Source of the DNA: Okamejei kenojei
Taxonomy: Eukaryota
Reading direction: 5' to 3'
Length of the DNA stretch: 64,000 nt
Assembly: GCA_035221665.1 (NCBI GenBank)
Contig: CM069136.1
Coordinates: 40,982,001-41,046,000, forward strand
A program made the translations under genes and the position numbers. Every line of letters starts with the position of its first letter. The stretch's first letter is position 1. This document shows, piece after piece, positions 8,875 to 63,014 of the stretch. The notes below the pieces were generated by a model, which worked only from the letters and a program-made list of their open reading frames with translations, was not told where the DNA came from and made no database searches.

Positions 8875-8970
8875 CAATATTAATCTCATCATCAGTCTCT
8901 GCATCGCCAATGCACTCAAACTGGAAATCCTGCAATGATTGTGAAAACCTCTGAACAGCTGCAGATAAAT
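8875..8970 (-). CDS. ARHGAP42: Coding exon 2 (BAR domain) of a GRAF-family Rho GTPase-activating protein, best match ARHGAP42
   Basis: Minus strand reads polypyrimidine-cag|AT TTA TCT GCA...ATT AAT ATT G|gtaagt; 96 nt, phase 1-1. Translates (N)[31 protein letters not shown](A), nearly identical to the ARHGAP42 segment as I recall it ([33 protein letters not shown]) and closer to it than to OPHN1 or ARHGAP26. Confidence 0.92.
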
Positions 8971-9306
8971 CTGAAAAACAAATACAAAAATACTAGACTT
9001 AAGATACTTTTCTAACACCTAAATTGGTCCTTTTTTAAAAAAAGTGAATAATGAGTCAAAGCTCAGCAAACATTGTTCATTATGATGCAAATATTTTAAA
9101 TGGGCAGGAATCTCATAGCACAATTCAATTATTCTACTGCAAAAATAATGTTTTGTCCTTTCAAGTCAAGAATCCTTGCTGTGAGTAACAACTGATATCA
9201 GCATTCAATCACTTTGAGGCTTCAGTCACATTCCTTGTGCTGGCTTTCCGGTTATAACAGTGCGGACTAAAACAAATCCCCTCCTGCTGCTATTTTGTGT
9301 TACTAA

Positions 9307-9795
9307 AGGGCCTGTCCTACCAGCATCCAACTCCATGCGGTGAGCGCGACCAAACCGGCAGCGGGGGCCGCGCGGAGGTGGGGTGAGTGGCGCAACGCGG
9401 CGGGAAGTGAGGCGAACTTGGAGCGAAGTCTGAAAGGTAAGTTCGCCAGGACTGAGAGGGACACACAGTGAGGGGCACAGAGTCACACACAGAGAGGGCC
9501 ATGGAGCCACACACAGAGAGGGTCACGGAGGCACCTACTGAGAGGGTCACGGAGGCACAACGTCGAAGCGGTGTGTAATGCGCCGAGGCAACTGCGAGTC
9601 GACAAGCCGTTGCCGCGCGGAATTTTTGAACATGGTCAGTTTTTCGGAGCCCCGCGCGATGTCGGGACGAACTCCGCACAATTCCGCACGGCTCCGGCGA
9701 TCGAAGTGGGACCGGCCCCGGGACGCCGGACAGCTCAAGCGACCACGTTAGGTCGCGCTCATTGCATGGAGTTGCATGCTGGTGGGACAGGCCCT
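9307..9795. mobile_element. Non-autonomous TIR element (Harbinger-like), CpG-rich; same family as 37619-38185
   Basis: TIR agggcctgtcctaccagcat / atgctggtgggacaggccct; TAA on both flanks; internal ~20-bp tandem repeats at 9450-9560. Confidence 0.9.
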
Positions 9796-10715: not shown

Positions 10716-11785
10716 AATTCAGATTCAGATTCAGATTCCTTTATTGTCATTCAGACCTTTCGGTCTGAACGAAATTTGTTACCTTGCAGTCATAACATGT
10801 AATAAAATTAAAACAAAACACACAATAAACACATAATTAACATCCACCACAGTGAGTTCACCAAGCACCTCCTCACTGTGGTGGAAGGCAAAAGTCTTAA
10901 AGTCTTTGTCAATTTCCCCTACTTGTTCCCCCTCTGTACTGAGGCAATCCAGGCCTTCGATGTCATCGTCCACCAGGCCCGCGGGCCGAGCCTCCGAAGC
11001 CAGGCCGCCACCGCCGCCGCCGCCGGAACACCACCACAGCCCCCAGCCAGGATCGACCACGGGAACGCTGGAGAGCCGCTGGAGCGCCGAAGCCCCGAAG
11101 CCGGGCCGCTGCTGGAGCACCTGCTGGAGAGCCGCCGGAGCGCCGCAGCTGGGCCGCTGCTGGAACACCCGCTGGAGAGCCACTGGAGAGCCGCCGGAGC
11201 GCCAATGCCGGGCCGCTGCTGGAACACCCGCCGGAGCCGCCGGAGCGCCAATGCCGGGCCGCTGCTGGAGCGCCGCTGGAGAGCCGCCGGAGCCGCCGGA
11301 GCGCCGAAGCCGGGCCGCTGCCAGAGTACCCGCTGGAGAGCCGCCGGAGCCGCCGGAGCGCCGAAGCCGGGCCGCTGCTGGAGCGCCGCTGGAGAGCCGC
11401 CGGAGCGCCAATGCCGGGCCGCTGCTGGAGCACCGCTGGAGCAACTGCTGGAGCGCCGAAGCCCCGAAGCCCCGAAGCCGGGCCGCCGCCGCCGCCGCTG
11501 GAACACCGGAGCTCTGAACGCTCGCCACAGCTCCGAGGCCACCAGCTCCGCCATTAGGCCTCAGCACAGACGGAGACGGTGACGGGGGACACGACAAGAA
11601 AAGGTCGCATCCCCCGAAGGGAGAGACTAAAACCTTGTTTCTCCCACCCTCCCCCCCCCCCCCCCCACACACAAACACAGCCTAATAAACCAAAATTCTA
11701 ACTAAAAACAGACACAAAAGGACCAAAAAAAAGAAAAAAACAGACGGGACTGCAGGTGAGCCGCAGCTGCCACGCAGCGCCGCCA
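10716..11785 (-). mobile_element. Non-coding retroposon-like element with (AATCTG)n tail and internal GC-rich minisatellite
   Basis: Minus strand ends aataaaggaatctgaatctgaatctgaa (LINE-type microsatellite tail); no RT motifs; GC-rich repeats inside. Confidence 0.65.
11066..11512. repeat. GC-rich composite minisatellite built from 9-12-bp modules
   Basis: Reiterated gctggagagccgccggagcgccgaagccgggccgct variants; module lengths are mostly multiples of 3. Confidence 0.9.
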
Positions 11786-31495: not shown

Positions 31496-31870
31496 TTAAT
31501 GTTTTTGTGTTAATTCCTCATCTTCTCTGTTTTTGAACAGATGCAAGTTGTTGCAGGTCTGATGAAAAATGTAACAGTTTGTTAATTAGTATATTCTCAG
31601 AAAGAGTTAAGACAGAAAACATAACCTGGAAATCAGTTGTCTATCCAACCTATTCCATTTTAATCGCACACCAGTTCAACTTTAAAGAATTTGTAGTCCA
31701 AGGCTCAATATAGTAAGAATGCACTATTTGCCACTTTCCAAACTCATCTCATGAAATTCAGTGAGAACTCCAGATATTCAGCTGGAAAAGCCACAATACT
31801 CACTATGAGAAATCACAAACACACAAAACTCACACAGAAGGCATCAAGAGGCAAGACACAACATATTGCA

Positions 31871-34800
31871 CATGGCTCGAAATTAGCGGTTGCCTGGGTG
31901 CCATTGAACACCCAAAGTGCCGCCGGGCAACCTAAACGCGAGTCATTTTGCCCGGCTTGGCTCGCAGATACTGGTTTATACCAAAGATAGACACAAAAAA
32001 ACTGGCGTAACTCAGCGGGTCAGGCAGCATCTCTGGAGAAAAGGAATGTGATGGTTTGTGTCAGCGACGGCTATAATGCGTGGGAAAGATGCCAAGTGTG
32101 GCGTGATGGAGGGTCGGAGCGAATGACGGGCCCCGAACAGCAACGACGTCGGCGACGGCTCCATCTCCTCCCGCCCCCCCGCCCGGCCTGATCATGACCG
32201 CTGTCTGCCACTCCGCCAACGGCGCTTTCAAAACAAACCCTCCCGCACGCCGAGGTTGGGAGGAAGGAGAGAGGGAGAGAGGGAGGGAGGGAGGGAGGGG
32301 GAGGCCCCCTTCCGCCGTCTGAAGCATCTGCACCGCTCGGCTCCGCACCTTCCTGTTGGTTGGCGGAGGAGGGGAGGTGGTGGCGAGGATCCCAACTGCC
32401 TCCCCCTTTGGCGGCGGCACTTGGCGATGGACAGCGGAAATCCCGGGGGGGGGACGTCTCCCCCTGTTTTGAGAGGTCCCCACCCGAGAGCCCTTCCCTC
32501 TTCCCTCCATGCCCGAGGGTGGCCAGAGACGTCGGGAGTCAGAGGGGAGTGGTGCTCCCAGGCCCACAGCCAGCGCAGAGAAGCAGCGCTAAACTCAGCT
32601 CAACTCTGCCTCTCCCGCCAGGTTATCCCTGCCTGGATTTACGGGAAATATGTCATCAGTCCAGGCGAGACAGGCAGAGTTGAGCTGCATTTAGCGCTGG
32701 ATTAAGCCTCCGAAGCCTCTCGCCTCTCATCTCTATCTCCCTATTCACCTTGCATTGATTCTCCTGCCACTCCCCATCAATCCTACACTGGTCCCCCAAT
32801 TCATCCTGTACTGACCACCCTTCCCATCCATCCTGCACTGCTCCACCCCTTCATCCTGCACTGCGCCCCCCCATCCATCCTGCACAGATTCCCCACATTC
32901 AACCCACTGTCATCCCCCATGCTCTCCCCTCACAATTTTACCTACTCCAACTAACACGCACGAATTCCCCTGCCTCAACCCATCCAATCCACCCCCCCCC
33001 CCCCCCCCACCATCTATCCATCCTGCACTGATTCATACCCCCCACTCCCGACCCTATTGTGCTGGAAATGTCTTCAGAGCTAACATTGACTATGTTTGAT
33101 AATGGAATGCAATCAAATATGTTTTAATTCCCAATGTTTTAATCCATAAAGATGGATGAATTAAATTGTGAACACGTTAAACATTAAAACCGCAGTGTTC
33201 GATTGTCACTGCTACCGTTGACACGTTATTTCAGAATTCATTTTAATGGCAAATCAATGCTCTTAATATGGAGTATCAGTACTGTAGTTATTTAATGAGC
33301 AACATTCACAACTATACATTGGATTTATCCAGGTTTTACTTCTACAGTCAGTCATATACATCACAAATTTGGTCAAGAGATATTTCAGTTTAAATTTTAA
33401 CGTTAATTCTGAAGTGGGAATGATGGAAAAAGCATTTATCAACACATTTTTTTTAAATTGTTGCTTACAAACTGGATATCTTAATTGCTGTTCACAACAC
33501 ATACATCTGATCTGAATGTCCGGTAGTGTGGCGTCTAGACACCTTTAAATATATTACCAAAAGAACATTTGCTGCATTTATGTCCTTTGGCCATCTCTTG
33601 TTAGTTAGTGTAATGTTTAACCTGTCAGATGGGTATAGTGAGTTTTAACAGCTTTTATCATAAAATGCCTTTAGAAAATTCCTTGCAACCTGTATATTTT
33701 GTTGTGGATAAATTACGTGGGAAGCGATGGTGTTTCTGTACCAATAGCAATAATGACCCATGCTGTGGCCATGTCATGATCATTTTTGGTCCTTCACAGA
33801 AAACATGCTCGCATCAATCTGTAGTGTGCATGGTTAAGCATATATGTTATCAAGGTCCAGGATTCCAGTATGCAGATGACACAACAGTGATGGGCCTCAT
33901 CCGGGACGACAATGAGCTTGCTTACAGGGAGGAGGTGAAACTGGTGGACTGGTGCAATACGAACAATCTGATCCTGAATGTCAAAAAAAGAAAGGACGTA
34001 ATTTTCTACTTCAGGAAAAACCGGCACAGTCACACACCACTTCATAGTAATGACAGCGATGTGGAGTTGGTCAGTAGCACTAAGATCCTGGGGGTGCAGA
34101 TCACTAACAGTCTGACCTGGTCAAATAACATCACATCAACAGTTAAGAGAGCGCAGCAGCGGTTGCGCTTTCTGCGCCGGATGAGAAGAGCTCACCTCCC
34201 CCATCCCCTCCTCACCACTTTCTACAGGGGCACCATGGAGAGTATTCTGACCAGCTGCATCTTTGTCTGGTTTGGGGACTGTAAAGCCTCTGACTGGAAG
34301 TCCGTGCAGAGAGTGCTGAGGACGACTGGAAAAATCATCTGGACTTCTCTCCCCTCAATCGGGGACATTGCGAGCAAACGTTGCTTGTCTAAGGCCAGCA
34401 GTATTATAAAGGACTCCAGGCAGCTCCATCATGGACTCTGCTGCCCTCGGGCAAAAGATATCGCAGCATAAGGAGCAGAATGTCAAGGTTTTGCAACAAC
34501 TTCTTCCCACGAGCCACCAGACTCTTGAATGCCATGTAATGGGCTGCCACCACTGTCTATTTTATCTTTTTATCCATTTTGTCTTTTTATCCATTTTATT
34601 TTTATATCCATTTTGTCCTTCTGTTTGTTATTGTGTTGCACAGAGAGCCAAATGCAACGGAATTTCGTTTGGAATTGCATATATCGTTGTATTTCTAAAT
34701 GACAATAAAGTTTGTTTGATTTGATTTTTTGATTTGATTATTGACACAGGCTGATCATACGCTGAATAATCCAACCACATTTTTGTTTGGAAGTGGAAAG

Positions 34801-37434: not shown

Positions 37435-37618
37435 CAGTGGCTTGCAAAAGTTGTCATACCCCTTGAACTTTTCCGCATTTTGTCACGATACAACCACAAA
37501 TGTAAATGTATTTTATTGGGATTTTATGTGATAGACCAACACAAAGTGGTGCATAATTGTGAAGTGGAGGGAAAATGATCCATGGTTTCCAAATTTTATC
37601 ACAAATAAAAAACTGAAA
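37435..37618 (+). mobile_element. Tc1/mariner transposon terminal fragment
   Basis: TA followed by cagtggcttgcaaaagt..cataccccttgaacttttcc..gatagaccaacacaaagt, a typical fish/amphibian Tc1 long-IR end; truncated at the next TIR element. Confidence 0.85.
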
Positions 37619-38185
37619 AGGGCCTGTCCCACCAGCATGCGACTGCATGCGGCGAGCGCGACCAAACCCGGTGGCTTGAGCTGTGCGGCCTCACGAGGCC
37701 GGTCCCACTTCCAACCGCGGAGCCGTATGGTGTTGTGTGGGGCTGGTCCCGACATCATACTCACCAATCAGCTGGGCAGGAGGCGGGCCAACTGAATTTG
37801 GACGTCACACGGCGTCTGGCGGCGACGTCATCACGCAACGGCATGCCGGACGGTGACATCATCACGCAATGCCACGCGTCAGGCGTGCGCCATCAAGAAG
37901 CTGCGTACGGCGTCCAGACGCTGCGTACGGCATCATGACACTGCATACGACGTCGAGACGTTGCGCACGTCCTCGATGCGGCTGCGGGCCGACAGGCCGT
38001 TGCCGCACGGGATTTGTGAACAGTGTCAGTTTTTCAGAGCCCCGCGCGATGTCGGGACCAGCCCCGCACAACTCGATACGGCTCCGGCGATCGAAGTGGG
38101 ACCGGCCCCGCAAGGCCGTACGGCTCAAGCGACCACGTTAGGTCGTGCTCACCGCATGCAGTCGCATGCTGGAGGGACAGGCCCT
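37619..38185. mobile_element. Non-autonomous TIR element (Harbinger-like), CpG-rich
   Basis: Long imperfect TIR agggcctgtcccaccagcatgcgactgcatgcgg / ccgcatgcagtcgcatgctggagggacaggccct; right half closely matches 9575-9795. Confidence 0.9.
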
Positions 38186-38607
38186 TTAGGCAGTGTTTGT
38201 GGAATACAAGTGTTCATATTTCAGATCAAAGATCTTTTATCTCAACTGGGAGCAGAGCTTTTTCAAGGTGGAAATTTCTGGAAATGAAGCAGCAGTGAAT
38301 TCAGAAACAAATTGCAAATGGCAGAAAATCTGAAGTAGGAACAAAAGCTTTGAATTATTAACACCGTTGTTTTTTCCACCAATGTTGTCTGACTTGCTGA
38401 ATGTTTCCAGCATTTTGTTTTTATTGCAGCTTTTTTTTTTTAAGTTCTTTCTGCATTACTTTTAATGTTGAAACTGACTTTAAAATAAATTATACAAAAT
38501 CATTCATTACTTTCATTTATGTCTAGTAATTTCTTAGCGAATTTGAAAATGAAATATTTTAAAATTATATATTAATAGCCTTGTATCTAAAGATATTTTT
38601 TTAATCT

Positions 38608-48802: not shown

Positions 48803-49022
48803 GGGTTACACAAAAAGCTGGAGAAACTCAGCGGGTGCAACAGCATCTAAGGAGCGAAGGAGATAGGCGATGTTTCGGGTCGAGACCCTTCTCCAGTCTG
48901 AAGAAGGGTCTCGACCCGAAACGTCGCCTATCTCCTTCGCTCCTTAGATGCTGCTGCACCCGCTGAGTTTCTCCAGCTTTTTGTGTACCCTCGATTCTCC
49001 AGCATCTGCAGTTCCTTCTTTA
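48803..49022. mobile_element. Complete Penelope-derived fold-back element with 16-bp TSD
   Basis: ~92-bp near-perfect inverted arms centred at ~48896, then a 3' tail; acagtattgatcatct duplicated at 48787-48802 and 49023-49038. Confidence 0.92.
48898..48925 (+). ncRNA. Minimal hammerhead ribozyme core
   Basis: CUGAAGA-A-GGGU(CUCG)ACCC-GAAA-CGUC: CUGANGA box, stem II, GAAA box, loopless ACGU palindrome, GUC cleavage triplet. Confidence 0.75.
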
Positions 49023-50527
49023 ACAGTATTGATCATCTACTTGATTAACAATGCTAATAATCATCTTTCACCTTAAGCCTGAAAAGCATAATGATGTAGA
49101 ACAATAAGCTCCCAGGATGGTGACCCTGCAAGCATGCCTGGTTAACACTGTTCGATCGCACACATTTGTTCTTACTATCTCTTGTTACCAAGGCTACATG
49201 CATTCAGGCAACGAGCTTAAATCTTTGTCATTTTACAACTTTCAAATTTCTTCCGATTTCATTTTCTGCCACTATTTTTCTGATATTTTTATTCTCCTCC
49301 CAGTCATGCCTCGATTGTCATTCTCTTTATTCTGTGCCACCACTTCTTTATGGTTTATAAAGTTTCCTGTTACTGGAAACATTCCCCACCCCCCACACTA
49401 ATAAGGCTCGCAGAGAAACTGCCCGTGTTTCAGAACAATTTTGCTTTCTGAAGCAACATCAATCTTTGTTTGTGCCGGTAGGGATTTGGCCCATGGCAAA
49501 TTTTACACTTTATTCCCATCGACTTCAATTTCACAAGGAATCTTTGAGGACACATTCATTCAAATGTTCTCTTGATATCAAAAGTGGTCATACTACCCTT
49601 GCACTGAAATCTATCTGCCTTGCCCATGCACCAAGAGCCAGAACTCTGTGGTCCTGGCCAAATACAAATTGAACATCAGTGACTAGATAATTGGCCAGAT
49701 GGAAGATTTCACCTTCCGTCTAGACAGTTGCACCCCTTGGGACTCAGAAATGAATTTAACAATTTCAGGTAACCACTCTATCTTCCTCTTTCTCTTTCTC
49801 TTTCTTCCTCCACAGATTTGGCTATACCTTAGTTTCATTTTATATCTTGATTTCATTTCTGCCACTTACTGCTGGAATTTAAAGTAATTGATACTTTGAT
49901 AATTTTGGTCAACACCCGATCACAGACATACTTACTGTTCCCTCCATGCCTTCCCCCTCTCTGCAATTTAAAACACACTTGGTTTCTCATCTTTCCAGTT
50001 CTGATAAAGAATACTTCACCCGACTATTAACCATTTCTTTTCCTACAGATGCAACCTGCTAATTGCATCCAGTTTTTGTTTTTGCATTAATTACCGTGGG
50101 ATCTACCTTGCATCAGTTCCCTGCAGATTGATCATTGGTGATGCACTGGACGAATTCTAGGTGATTCTTATCCCCTACCCCATATCTCAAATGATTCAAC
50201 TCCTGGCTGCCCACAGTTTTCAGCCATCCGCAAGGTGCAAGTCAGCTCTCTAAATGAGTACAACACTCAAGAAAACTCAACACTATCCATGTTAATCAAA
50301 CACGTGGCGCAATGTGCGTTGGAAATATATCACCTAATCTTCATTGTAGTTGAATCAAAGACACAATGGTGCTCCAAAGACAACAGCCGATTACAGAGCA
50401 AACTCATTAATAACTTCTCAAGAACAATTAGTATTGGGCAATTATTGCTGGTCTCACAAAAGTCCATATTCAATTGTTGAACAGAAATAAAGTAGCCACC
50501 AATTTCCTATTGTTACAGGAGTGTTCA

Positions 50528-50865: not shown

Positions 50866-52439
50866 TGGTTGTGAAACACATTTGCGGGACAGAAAGGAAA
50901 AACTTGGTTGACACATACCTGACTTAGTTTGAAAAATAGAAAAACTTTAATAAGTGTTACACATGATCATAATAGGATTTATTACATATTGCTTACAGAT
51001 ACATATAGGTGATACCGATAAAATTGTCGAAACTGTATACAATTTAGCTTTCAGCAAGGAAAAAAAATCAAAATGCCACTTGTAACATAAATGTTTTAGG
51101 ATATCACTGATGTTTAGCCCCTGATTTTACTTCGGAGTCGGGTATGCCGCATGCGCACCAGTACGTCAGCCGCATTGACGCACGGAGGCTGCGAGGATCA
51201 GAGCTCCTCCAGCGGTAAGTATGCAGACTCCAGGTAAGTTTTTAAAAACTTTTTCTGGAGTTCGAGTCCGTGCTGGCTGGTACGCTATACCGAGTGCTGG
51301 CATGGAAAAAACAGGGAAGGGAAAGCGGCAAGGATCAAGCAGCAGCGGCAGCTCAGGCTTGGAAGCCCTGCCTTATACCCCTGTTCAGTCGCTAGCACAG
51401 CACAGAGCCGCCGCCATTAGGGCGCAAGGAGTCGGGGGAGTCTTCGGTTTGATTCCTCACCGGGGCTGGATAGAGTGTGTACACGCCTATCCCAAGTAGA
51501 GGAGCTGTTGCATACAGTCCTCCAAAGAACTTCACTCCAAGATTAGTGAGTGGCAGCGCTCAGAGAAAGAAGCGCCAGCAGTGCTGCCAGAAAACCCTTT
51601 TCATTTTGAAGGGAGTACAATGGGTCAGGGCAGTCCTGAGCCCGAATCTGATGGGGAAGTTCAGCCAGAAGAAACAGTAGAATTACCAGATGTTCCACCA
51701 CTGGCAGTTCCATTTGCTGTACCATCAGGAGCAGGTGAGCCACTAGGTGAAGAGCTGGCTACCACAATAAATTACATGGTGTCTCATCAGCTCCAGGAGC
51801 TTACTATGGATGAGACAGCCAAAAAAACATGAGCCTCCAAGCAACTGTGAGTTGTTAAGAGTTCCAACTGTGAATCAAGTTATATGGGGCCAAATGGGAC
51901 CCGGCATGCGAAGTCAAGAGATTAAAATCCAGAGAATTTTAAAGTTATTGGCTGCTGGCATTACAGCATTTGCAAGAACAATGGATGGTGGTTTTGTGAC
52001 CAGAACACACCAAGAGGGTCTAGGGTTGTTATGTAACACCCATTTCGAGATCAATTGTCTCAGGAAAAGGGCTATAGGCCCACCATTAATCCCAGATATG
52101 CTTCGCTTTGCAAACCAGCAAATATTCAACCACCTGATCTACTGTTTGGTGCAGATCTTACCAAACAGGTCAAAGAAATAAATGAAGATGCAAAAACAAT
52201 GAGCTTGATGAGACCAATGATGCACGGCAGACAGCTGAAGAGAAAGTATCCTTATAGAACCACCTCAGCATCCGGGGCTACACCAGGGACAAGTCGGTCC
52301 TCAGCGCAGGGGCGTGGATGGTATCCTTCGGCTGGAGCACGAGCAACCATGGGGGCTACTGCCAGACGCTGGAGTCAGCAGGGTGCATCAGTTACCAGAG
52401 AGGTAAGTGGACCTGGTTCTCATAAAAACATATTAATTG

Positions 52440-58989: not shown

Positions 58990-59484
58990 GAGCGTTTGTA
59001 TCAACGGGTCGATGGTGGATAGGGTCAAGAACTTCAAATTCCCGGACGTGCATATTTCCGAATATCTCTCATGGTCCCAGAACTCTGATGCAATCATAAA
59101 GAAAGCACATCAGCGCCTCTACTTCCTGAGAGGATTACGGAGAGTCAGTATGTCAAGGAGCACTCTCTCAAACTTCTACAGGTGCACAGTAGAGAGCATG
59201 TTGACCGGTTGCATAGTGGCTTGGTTCGGCAACCTGAGCGTCCAGGAGCGGAAAAGGCTGCAAAAAGTTGTAAACACTGCCCAGTCCATCATCGGCTCTG
59301 ACCTCCCTACCATTGAGGGGATCTATAGCAGGTGCTGTCTCAAAAAGGCTACCAGCATCATCAAGGACCCACGCCATCCTGGCCACACGCTCGTCTCTCT
59401 GCTGCCATCAGGTAGAAAGTACAGGAGCCTGAAATCTGCAACATCCAGGTTCAGGAACTGCTTCTTCACCACAGCCATCAGACT
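58990..59484 (+). mobile_element. Rex1/Babar LINE fragment, cut at its 3' end by a DIRS insertion
   Basis: KKAHQRLYFLR...FYRCTVESMLTGCIVAWFGN...HPGH...LLPSGRKYRS...RFRNCFF. Confidence 0.9.
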
Positions 59485-60389
59485 ATTTTACTTCGGAGTC
59501 ACGTGAGTGACTACGTGAAAAAGCCCCGCCAGGCGCATGCGCGTCATTACGTCGACGCATGTCGCATTGAACGGAGCTGGAGAGCGCAGCTCCACCAGCG
59601 GTAAGTAGAAAACCTCGCAGGTAAGTGTTTAAAACTTTCCAGCGAGACTTAAGCTCCGTAAGGCTGGCTTGTGAGTCAGCAGGAGCCTGTGGTACAGTAG
59701 GAGGAGCAAGCGTGGGTCACGCAGCATTGCGGTCCCATCGCAGCGATCGGGAAAATAGATAAGTGCGGTGCCGGTTCCAATACCGGTGGACGTTATTCCG
59801 TAGTTAATAACCCTCCAGCTGCTCTAGAGTCGCACGGGCTGAGGCCCCAACGATAGGGAAGCATACAAGGTTTGCTCTGAGTATGTGTTATCAGATGCTG
59901 TTTGCTTAGTTTGATGCGTATGATCTGTGTGATACTGAGATTAATACAAATATTCTGCAAGCAGAATGTGCCTGTCAGAATCTATAATTCTAAACATGAA
60001 CATATATGGTTTATGCACAAATACACAAGAAAATGTAAAATAAAGTAACTCTCCTCCAAGAGAGGACAAGAATGTGGGGGAGACTAGAAATGGAGAAAAT
60101 GCTGCACACTTTACTCAGTCAAGGGTCCAAAGACCCAAAGATTCCCAGGCAGCCTCCGAAGGAGTTCCATACACTGTGTATGGTGCCTGTTAAAAATGGG
60201 AATCTGACTTTCCAGTGCCTTGTTAGGTCTGGATGAGGTCTCCCTAGAGCAAGACTAAAATGCTCCAAACTTTAATCAGTCAAAGGTCCAAAGACCCAGA
60301 GATTCCCAGGCAGCCTCCGAAGGAGTTCCATACACTGAGTATGCATACCTGCCAACTTGTGAGATTGAAAAATCGGAATCCTATTAGTC

Positions 60390-60520
60390 TGACGTCAGTG
60401 AGGGCGGGGCACATGACGTCAGTAAGGGGCGGGGCAGGTGACGTCAGTTAAGGGGCGGGGCAAGTGACGTCAGTAAGGGGCGGGGTACGTGACGTCAGTG
60501 AGGGCGGGAAAGTGACCTCA
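60390..60520 (+). promoter_or_regulatory. ~25-bp tandem array, each unit a full CRE (TGACGTCA) plus GC box
   Basis: TGACGTCA at 60390, 60414, 60439, 60465, 60490 and TGACCTCA at 60513; the first five are each followed by gggcggg. The motifs are certain, the function is untested. Confidence 0.6.
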
Positions 60521-60523
60521 GGG

Positions 60524-60745
60524 GGGTTACACAAAATGCTGGAGAAACTCAGCGGGTGCAGCAGCATCTAAGGAGCGAAGGAGATAGGCGACGTTTCGGG
60601 TCGAGACCCTTCTCAGTCTGAAGAAGGGTCTCGACCCAAAACGTCGCCTATCTCCTTCGCTCCTTAGATGCTGCTGCACCGCTGAGTTTCTCCAGCATTT
60701 TGTGTAACCCTCGATTCTCCAGCATCTGCAGTTTCTTCGTCAACT
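60524..60745. mobile_element. Penelope-derived fold-back element, near-identical to 48803-49022
   Basis: Same inverted arms and tcgattctccagcatctgcagtt tail. Confidence 0.92.
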
Positions 60746-63014
60746 CTCAGTTTGTGAGTGTTGACGAAGAGGCGGGAACGGGCTGGCCCCGACCCGACCT
60801 GACGCGCTCGCGGTCACTCACACGGGCTGACAGACCCGGCGGGCGGCGGCGGCAGCGGCGCTGAGGTGAGGTGACCGGTGAGTGTTGCCCGTCTGGGCCG
60901 GACCGGACCATCTCTCCCTGCCCCCTCATCGCCTCTTCCCTGCCCCTGAAGTGATAATGAACGTATTTGGCTTACTACCCCACGGGATGATCGTTGATTT
61001 CCCCCTCTCCACCCTCCTCCCCGGTGCCCACCTGACTCGCACCTACTTCTCCCCTGCGCTTCTGAGTCTAGACGCTCCAGCCGTTCCATCCCAATTCCGA
61101 TTTTTTTGTCTCAATATTCCGAGAAAAAAAATCGGAAAAAAAACACATAGAAAGTTTCTGTGTGTTTTTTTTTTCCGATTTTTTTTCTCGGAATATTGAG
61201 ACAAAAAATCGGAATTCGGAATTGGGATGGAAAAATCGGAAGAATTCCGCCCAAATCGGAATGGTTGGCAGGTATGAGTATGGTGCCTGTTAAAAAATGG
61301 GAATCTGACTCTCCAGTGCCTTGTTTAGGTCTGGATGAGGTCTCCCTAGAGCAAGACTTGGGAGGAGACTGACCCTGAAACTGGTGTCCCTACTTATGTG
61401 TATACACCAGAGCACAAGAGCCATGCTCCGGGTGTTCTCGATGTAGCATCAAGTTTTGAGGCTATGGATGAGACCTGGCTGCCAACATTATTTGGTTTCA
61501 CACCTGCTCCAAGAAACTGTTATGATTGAAACAGTAAAAGATATATAAAACACCCGTCTATTGTGCCTCGCTCAGGGTGCCAACAGTAAACTCAGTAATT
61601 TGGGCACCCATGAGTGTAACGATGCGAGGGCAGGAAATGTGTTTCCAGCATGTCCTTTAGCTGATATCAGTTGGCATCACTGCATTTGGGGAAGACATAC
61701 AAGGATCGATAATATCCAAAACGTATAAAGACATGCTTGCGTTACTCTGCAATGCCTATTCGAACCTAATTGTATGATGATAAATTGCCATTTGGCCAAC
61801 ATTCTACCCAAAAAAAAAATGCAGGACTATGTAGGGCAAACAAGAACCAAATTATTGTTAAAAATCTGCCAAAACATTTCAGGATATTTGCCTTATAAAA
61901 CTGCTCATCCCTGCTCTGAGAAAACAAGCAGGTTGAATACGAAGGGGGTTGATTCTGGGAGACCAGCAGAGGCAGGGAGATGGGTACAAAGTATTATACA
62001 CAATACAACCCACATCAACCCTTATATTGGGAGAAGGAGATCTTCTAGTTAATTTACGGAGGTACTCGAACTTCATTCCATCACAGATAGAACTTCTGGG
62101 GTACAACCTCTGGTTGGGTGTAAGATTACAATTGTTTTATAATGAATGATGCTGCATAATATTTGATTGCTTTGGTGTTTGCTGCACCAGAAACTCGTCA
62201 GGTAGAAAATATATTCCCAGACAGAAGAAGATGGGGGTTGCAGAGTCATTCTGGACCTCACAAACTTTAATTCATATGTTCAGTATAGGCATTTTTAAAC
62301 AAGTACACTTTCAACTCTGTAACGCAGTTGTTATCACAAGGCTGCCATATGGCTACTATAGACCTAAAAAAGATACCTTATTATTCAGTACCAATTCATC
62401 ATTATCGCAGGTACTTTAAATTAATTGGATGGGTCAGCTGAGGCAATTAAAGAATTACCTAATGGGTTAACTTCAGCTCTCAGGCTGTTCACAAAATTAT
62501 TGAAACCAGCACTGGTGTTACTGAGGGCTCAGAATCACATTGTAATGGCATATCTAGAGGATATGTTAATTGTAAATGCCACTCAGGAGACAGCTGAAGA
62601 ACTGGTTTCAGCAACCATAAGCCTATTTGAAAGGCTAGGGTTTCTGTCCATCCAACAACATCTAAGTTACAGCCATCCCAAACATTTGATTATTTGGGGT
62701 TTGTCATTAATTCAGTTGATATGTCAGTAACTTGCTAACAGATAAGGTTGGATATATTACAAATGCCTGTACTTGTCTCGCTGAGAGACCTTATCCCTCC
62801 ATCCGAGAAGTAGCTACAGGTATTGGTAAAATGGTAGCAGCATTTCTGCTGTCGAGTTTGGACCTCTGCATTATCGAAGTCTGCAAAGAGCCAGAAGACA
62901 AGCACTAAAAATAAAAATATTTAAATTTTAAAAAATAATAATAATAATTTTTTTTGTTTTAAAGCGTGCATGTCATTTGATAGGTCCCATGCAGTTTTTT
63001 GTTTTTTTTTAAAT

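Follow-up and report, generated by a model that had tools for sequence, protein, structure and literature searches.

How does a DNA transposon come to carry five perfect CRE palindromes, each followed by a GC box, and does such an array do anything for the gene in which it lies? The question is raised by a non-coding element of 933 bp, at 60344-61276 of a 64-kb stretch of Okamejei kenojei DNA (the window, in what follows). The answer that we prefer, with a probability of about 0.55, is that the array is the element's own TATA-less CREB/ATF and Sp/KLF promoter, kept after deletion of the transposase gene and now a passenger.

60390-60512, plus strand: five tandem 23-26-bp units, each TGACGTCA, then 4-6 nt, then GGGCGGG (motif positions, Tandem Repeats Finder)
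60513-60523, plus strand: sixth, degenerate unit TGACCTCA, cut by a nested insertion (motif comparison)
60762-60779, plus strand: possible decayed seventh unit, a half-CRE TGACG followed by GAGGCGGG (a weak candidate)

The perfect palindromes start at 60390, 60414, 60439, 60465 and 60490 and are the sole five copies of TGACGTCA in the 64 kb; the starts are spaced by 24, 25, 26 and 25 nt, then by 23 nt to the sixth unit. The GGGCGGG lying 4-6 nt 3' of each is found on the plus strand of the window at these five places only, and its GGGCGG we take to be the Sp/KLF box. Tandem Repeats Finder gives the array a period of 25, with 4.8 copies and 88% matches. The periods correspond to 2.2-2.5 helical turns, neither in phase nor cleanly anti-phase. 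The sixth unit departs from the palindrome by a G>C transversion, not by CpG decay, has no GC box and is interrupted at 60524. The first CRE begins 46 nt from the start of the left TIR (60344), and across the element the CRE half-sites number 10 in the left 200 nt, three in the middle and none in the right 200 nt. An earlier note on this DNA had reported the five palindromes at 24-26 bp with their GGGCGGG, the degenerate sixth unit and the 46-bp distance to the TIR, and the motif positions bear it out on all three.

How surprising is this? In shuffled sequence TGACGTCA occurs 0.47 times on average and five copies were reached in 0 of 100 shuffles, a null that overstates the significance because the five copies stem from the amplification of one unit. 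A fairer comparison is with the single random 25-mer of array composition: a perfect CRE appeared in 21 of 200,000 and a CRE with a GC box in none of 200,000, before correction for other motifs that would also have caught the eye.

60096-60256, plus strand: 161-bp tandem copy with an empty insertion site (copy 2 is 60257-60343 plus 61283-61358)
60338-60343, no strand: left TSD AGTATG, 6 bp (8 bp, 60336-60343, if the right end is read 2 nt short; TSD comparison)
60344-60356, plus strand: left 13-bp TIR CATACCTGCCAAC, 12/13 identical to the TIR of zebrafish Pdre2 (PMC10983969)
61264-61276, minus strand: right 13-bp TIR, a 13/13 match to the left TIR
61277-61282, no strand: right TSD AGTATG (TSD comparison)

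The insertion itself is directly evident: once the element and one TSD are taken out, the 161-bp tandem unit is whole again. Between its two copies 7 of 159 non-CpG columns differ and, as copy 1 is empty, the insertion would most simply be later than the duplication. When TSD lengths from 4 to 10 bp are tried with full TIRs only 6 bp matches, and a match of 7 or 8 bp is obtained only by shortening the right end by 1 or 2 nt. The TIRs, the TSD and the empty site rule out vector or synthetic contamination; blastn of 60344-60523 against 72,556 plasmid records, a plasmid set rather than a vector library, gave no match. Bacterial and archaeal matches to the TIR with the subterminal motif (two, against about four expected) had no CRE and no opposite TIR, and were set aside as chance. 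The window contains no second copy of the transposon's own sequence. Nine ORF frames overlapping the element gave no Pfam match, and a search of its six frames for THAP-type peptide patterns gave one stray match only. No autonomous partner was seen among the window ORFs scanned with Pfam, which were 127 of the 642 of at least 45 aa, mostly those of at least 90 aa.

To what family does the element belong? Its TIR is that of a P-superfamily element of the Pdre2/THAP9 type (12 of 13 positions), whereas its TSD is not the 8 bp of that type, the 12-bp subterminal repeat of Pdre2 has no copy in the window, and THAP consensus sites are missing. TxxxGGCA is one THAP site motif, with no occurrence in the element. 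The full THAP consensus, TxxGGGx(A/T) (PMC10824691), likewise has none. The 6-bp TSD agrees with the definition of hAT6 (PMC12730594) and the 13-bp TIR lies within the short-TIR range of hAT elements, 10-25 bp (PMC3942097), a likeness in TSD and TIR length. IS3EU was considered and rejected: it requires a TIR longer than 30 bp and TAYGG..CCRTA ends (fungal families, PMC12730594), and the present TIR has 13 bp and starts with CATAC. With TIRs, a TSD matched by an empty site and no transposase ORF, the element is a non-autonomous class II (TIR), MITE-like transposon; because its TSD does not fit the P type and no transposase is present, we class it no more narrowly than as a non-autonomous TIR transposon whose ends resemble Pdre2 and whose TSD resembles hAT6. 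Among frog and fish repeats there are some with comparable termini and subterminal repeats. The combination of a Pdre2-near TIR at 60344-60356 with a 6-bp TSD raises a question of its own: are Pdre2-type ends specific to P elements? Searches of the Creative Commons papers in PMC and of bioRxiv turned up no account of this family, nor of any DNA transposon of vertebrates in which CREs form a tandem array; Repbase or Dfam may already catalogue the family.

60370-60378, plus strand: left-end copy of the subterminal motif AAATCGGAA, a candidate transposase site (motif distribution)
61084-61232, no strand: right subterminal foldback palindrome, rich in TCGGAA/AAATCGGAA (inverted-repeat and motif positions)

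Seven of the eight copies of AAATCGGAA in the window lie inside the element, one in the left 200 nt, none in the middle and six in the right 200 nt. A subterminal motif repeated at both ends is a hAT trait. The 149-bp foldback multiplies the motif in both orientations, its inner arms being 45/46 identical, and is reminiscent of the end expansion of Galileo and Foldback. Since AAATCGGAA occupies both ends and the CRE half-sites one only, we infer that recognition of the ends falls to AAATCGGAA and a promoter-like role to the array; on its distribution, AAATCGGAA is the better candidate for the transposase site.

60524-60744, no strand: nested 221-bp repeat with inverted arms of about 90 bp (95% paralog at 48803-49024)
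60770-60877, plus strand: CpG-rich segment resembling a leader exon, a putative exon (half-CRE at 60800, GC box at 60841)
60878-60883, plus strand: candidate 5' splice donor CCG/GTGAGT, antisense to ARHGAP42

Downstream, the order along the element is that of a gene's 5' end: TIR, subterminal motif, CRE/GC-box array, CpG-rich segment, donor. The stretch 60770-60900 has a GC content of 76% and a CpG observed/expected ratio of 1.03. From the last CRE to the donor at 60878 the distance is 388 nt, or 167 nt without the nested insert, which separates the array from the leader segment. The donor is weak on its own, as the plus strand of the window holds 14 matches to GGT[AG]AGT.

The nested repeat is of some interest in itself. 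Its arms, folded as DNA, form a hairpin with a z-score of -28, and its family is presumably non-autonomous and Penelope-like, with hammerhead-like cores; a gathering-threshold Rfam scan of the window gave no match, and the folding of 60595-60675 gave a palindromic hairpin and no hammerhead. Shorter, diverged relatives lie at about 4.3, 16.0, 17.6, 20.6, 30.5, 44.0, 44.9 and 47.1 kb. The paralog at 48803-49024 has its own clean 14-bp TSD, unlike the copy at 60524-60744, which has none. The tail of the latter (60734-60770) differs from that of the paralog and repeats, in inverted form, 16 bp of the target sequence that lies 5 nt downstream, which suggests template switching or microhomology priming at insertion.

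Where was the array shaped, and was it under selection? Pairwise, its units differ at 2-5 of 25-26 columns. This is more than the apparent age of the copy allows, so that the array was shaped in an ancestor of the present copy, and any selection would have worked on the transposon or its source and not on this locus. When the units are anchored on their motifs there are six substitutions in nine spacer columns and none in 15 motif columns (P 0.003, or 0.013 if the change in the sixth unit is counted), in a test that leaves out indels and is biased, since the units were picked by their motifs. A first column test (P 2e-5) was dropped, as it had been distorted by the placement of gaps in G runs. 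The view that the repeats are only slippage products, held out earlier as an alternative, is opposed, as regards slippage at this locus, by changes that spare the motifs and by an array older than the insertion.

It is tempting to see function in the CRE CpGs, which are, as had been stated, all intact. Over the whole element the CpG observed/expected ratio is 0.94, and over 60745-61276, which excludes the array and the insert, it is 1.03; the window has 0.48 and the DIRS body described below 0.14-0.29. Between the nested arms one of 12 CpG copies has decayed and none of 78 non-CpG columns differs; at that rate of decay five intact CpGs would be found with a probability of about 0.65. We have therefore rejected the intact CpGs as a sign of function: the element is CpG-intact throughout, and the youth of the copy suffices to explain them. 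The sole substitution between the arms is itself a CpG transition, which hints at methylation in the germline.

8875-8970, minus strand: 96-nt coding exon of ARHGAP42, probably the second, flanked by AG/GT (BAR_3 match; 51.4 kb from the array)
59482-62732, plus strand: degraded DIRS-like retrotransposon that hosts the insertion, limits approximate (translated match to the element at about 51.1-55.6 kb)

The gene is identified by a single exon. Among the matches listed, those full-length ones that bear a specific name are all ARHGAP42, and no other member of the GRAF family is named. The 31 complete codons of the exon are identical in 6/6 chondrichthyan references and in 1/71 other named references, a pattern that points to a cartilaginous fish, and in full-length shark proteins the aligned part is residues 49-84. 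A search of the window for the N-terminal part of ARHGAP42 gave no match better than E 0.54. The array likely lies in intron 1, as proposed before: the gene was named correctly, while the intron number is deduced, because the N-terminal exon lies outside the window. The leader segment and its donor are oriented antisense to ARHGAP42. A CpG-island-like stretch at 31750-32600, which holds the window's only two minus-strand GGGCGGG and has no match to the ARHGAP42 N-terminus, could be a repeat or an alternative promoter. Further CpG-rich islands with observed/expected ratios above 1 and short tandem repeats, at 9251-9750 and 37501-38250, are probably the 5' ends of other elements. At 11004-11498 there is a CpG-rich tandem array of units of about 56 bp (GC 78% at 11001-11500) with open frames on both strands, three of which gave no Pfam match.

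The retrotransposon into which the element inserted is recognised through its relative at about 51.1-55.6 kb, which has a reverse transcriptase (E 4e-20) and a tyrosine recombinase (E 1.3e-6); the reverse transcriptase of the host element itself scores E 0.008. The CpG-rich 5' ends of the two (51140-51260 and 59525-59640) share GCATGCGC, which we take to be NRF1-like, a half-CRE and two tandem GGTAAGT donors, and CpG remains high in these ends while the bodies have decayed. With neighbours that also combine CpG-rich 5' ends, factor-like motifs and donors, the layout of the array is an ordinary one for transposons here.

Would such a promoter respond to cAMP? Full CREs are there in five copies. 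The 4-mer TATA, the other component of the cAMP-inducible CRE/TATA promoter (PMC5740062), is absent from both strands of 60344-61276. In neurons, TATA-less CRE promoters are bound by CREB yet poorly induced (PMC5740062). In liver most CREB-bound genes are uninduced and the association with TATA is weak (PMC3671974), which limits the argument from the missing TATA, and methylation of the CRE CpG weakens or blocks binding (PMC11333461). With or without TATA, a tandem array of five CREs may respond to induction; going by the sequence, basal activity is the better prediction.

The preferred reading, of a promoter that the element brought with it, may then be put as follows. The array would have been inherited from an autonomous parent, where it drove the transposase gene. 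The five TGACGTCA sites would be occupied by CREB/ATF dimers, with Sp/KLF factors on the GC boxes, and largely constitutive, TATA-less transcription would start in the CpG-rich segment and be spliced at the 60878 donor. An internal deletion probably took out the transposase and left both ends, with the AAATCGGAA repeats, and not the array, as the predicted binding sites of the transposase. The present copy landed in the decayed DIRS-like element, has the 221-bp hairpin repeat between array and leader, and is probably a passenger without a role for ARHGAP42. In favour of such a descent there is the non-autonomous P-like Izanagi, which keeps degenerate transposase exons (PMC2820524); that no remnant is found in the element counts against this reading, whose descent from a transposase gene is presumed.

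The same lack of any transposase trace would suit a Pack-TIR capture, in which the ends acquired the CpG-island promoter of a host gene along with its first exon and the start of an intron, the array coming from the captured segment or expanding within it. The resemblance of 60770-60900 to a housekeeping 5' UTR with its donor points the same way, and the capture of 5' UTR sequence by a frog hAT element is documented (PMC8277862). Such an origin is nevertheless doubtful: the window, with 3.6 kb of right flank there, contains no parental copy, although the parents of single-copy Pack-TIRs usually lie within 15 kb (PMC8277862), and the array starts merely 11 nt past the left subterminal motif. 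Might the array instead consist of subterminal repeats bound by the transposase, its CRE and GC-box words being coincidental? Tandem repeats with THAP sites are carried by the P-family element Galileo (PMC3688188), TxxGGG is present in all six units, a single TxxGGGCGG occurs at the right end, at 22 nt from its terminus, and constraint on the unit core would suit any protein. We think this unlikely, as TxxGGG is common elsewhere in the window (5.8 per kb), the full THAP consensus and TxxxGGCA are missing, and the right 200 nt, without a CRE half-site, shares AAATCGGAA with the left end. This symmetry of the ends tells against the earlier note's alternative, in which the array was only transposase-binding.

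The unit may also have come by its CRE and GC box through chance and have multiplied by slippage in the ancestral element, free of any selected function. MITE-borne tandem repeats are known (from titles in the reference list of PMC12676858), and the units are recognisably one amplified sequence, so that five copies are one event; but changes that spare the motifs (P 0.003-0.013), and a unit that random 25-mers did not yield once in 200,000, make a neutral minisatellite highly improbable. Just as improbable, we believe, is the reading offered first, of a mobile signal-responsive cassette: a cAMP-inducible promoter or enhancer that acts here on ARHGAP42 or makes an antisense transcript. It has in its favour the five perfect CREs with their GC boxes, and host co-option of transposon-borne sites is possible, as with Izanagi (PMC2820524) and Xenopus MITEs (PMC12676858). 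A transposon with a promoter-like array is indeed what we find. The signal response fares poorly for want of TATA, and a host role does no better: the nested split, the DIRS-like host and the antisense orientation had been overlooked, and the array sits in a decayed retrotransposon, parted by a hairpin from its leader and 51 kb from exon 2. Its CpGs, intact through youth, would if methylated in the germline be closed to CRE binding (PMC11333461).

What would follow if more were true? A recently active family with Pdre2-like ends and a 6-bp TSD might have spread an intact five-fold CRE/Sp promoter with its leader exon through a cartilaginous-fish genome, wiring many loci to CREB/CREM and firing an antisense ARHGAP42 transcript here. 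We consider this quite unlikely; were it so, this would hint that Pdre2-type termini are common to P-like and hAT6-like elements. An array that is family-wide and active would make a mobile, homotypic CREB promoter of natural origin, on which transposon-driven rewiring could be cleanly tested in a little-studied vertebrate lineage. The present evidence is of one nested, interrupted copy of an ordinary non-autonomous DNA transposon in which a promoter was likely kept, and MITE-borne factor sites, TGACGTCA among them, are already known. For the classification of vertebrate P-like and hAT6 elements, a Pdre2-like TIR next to a 6-bp TSD poses a puzzle that is minor yet genuine.

Tandem full or nearly full CREs at short period are familiar from viral CRE-repeat enhancers, the 19-bp repeats of HCMV and the 21-bp repeats of HTLV-1. 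Synthetic multi-CRE reporters include a TATA minimal promoter, unlike the present array, whose natural origin is evident from the TIR, the TSD and the empty site. Zebrafish Pdre2 (PMC10983969) shares 12 of the 13 TIR positions, and internally deleted copies occur in its family; it differs in its 8-bp TSD, 12-bp subterminal repeat and THAP9 gene, and no CRE array is mentioned in the portion of that paper cited. The hAT6 group, of the Blackjack lineage (PMC12730594), has the exact 6-bp TSD with complete short TIRs, while the present element has no transposase. Medaka Izanagi (PMC2820524) is likewise a non-autonomous P-like element from a fish; it measures about 1 kb, its factor sites are clustered and a nested retroelement splits it, but its TIR is 27 bp, its TSD 8 bp, it retains a THAP remnant, its sites are for Dmrt1 and Sox5, and its co-option rests on experiment. 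The Xenopus hAT-N16_XT (PMC12676858), in which ATF sites are enriched, and the C. elegans CERP2/CELE2 elements (10.1101/2022.01.21.477252) are MITEs whose internal repeats or paired motifs serve as promoters or enhancers and which, like Izanagi, show co-option; their termini differ, and they are known from chromatin evidence where ours is known from sequence. Neither a CATACCT terminus nor TGACGTCA occurs in 12 of the 13 supplements of the Xenopus paper (PMC12676858). The Harbinger MITEs of Prunus (PMC5950925) are non-autonomous DNA transposons that carry the identical octamer as a bZIP60 site, such that 49% of the TGACGTCA copies of peach lie in MITEs. There, in a plant, genome-wide amplification of the site has been demonstrated; here a single known copy carries the octamer five-fold, each time with a GC box.
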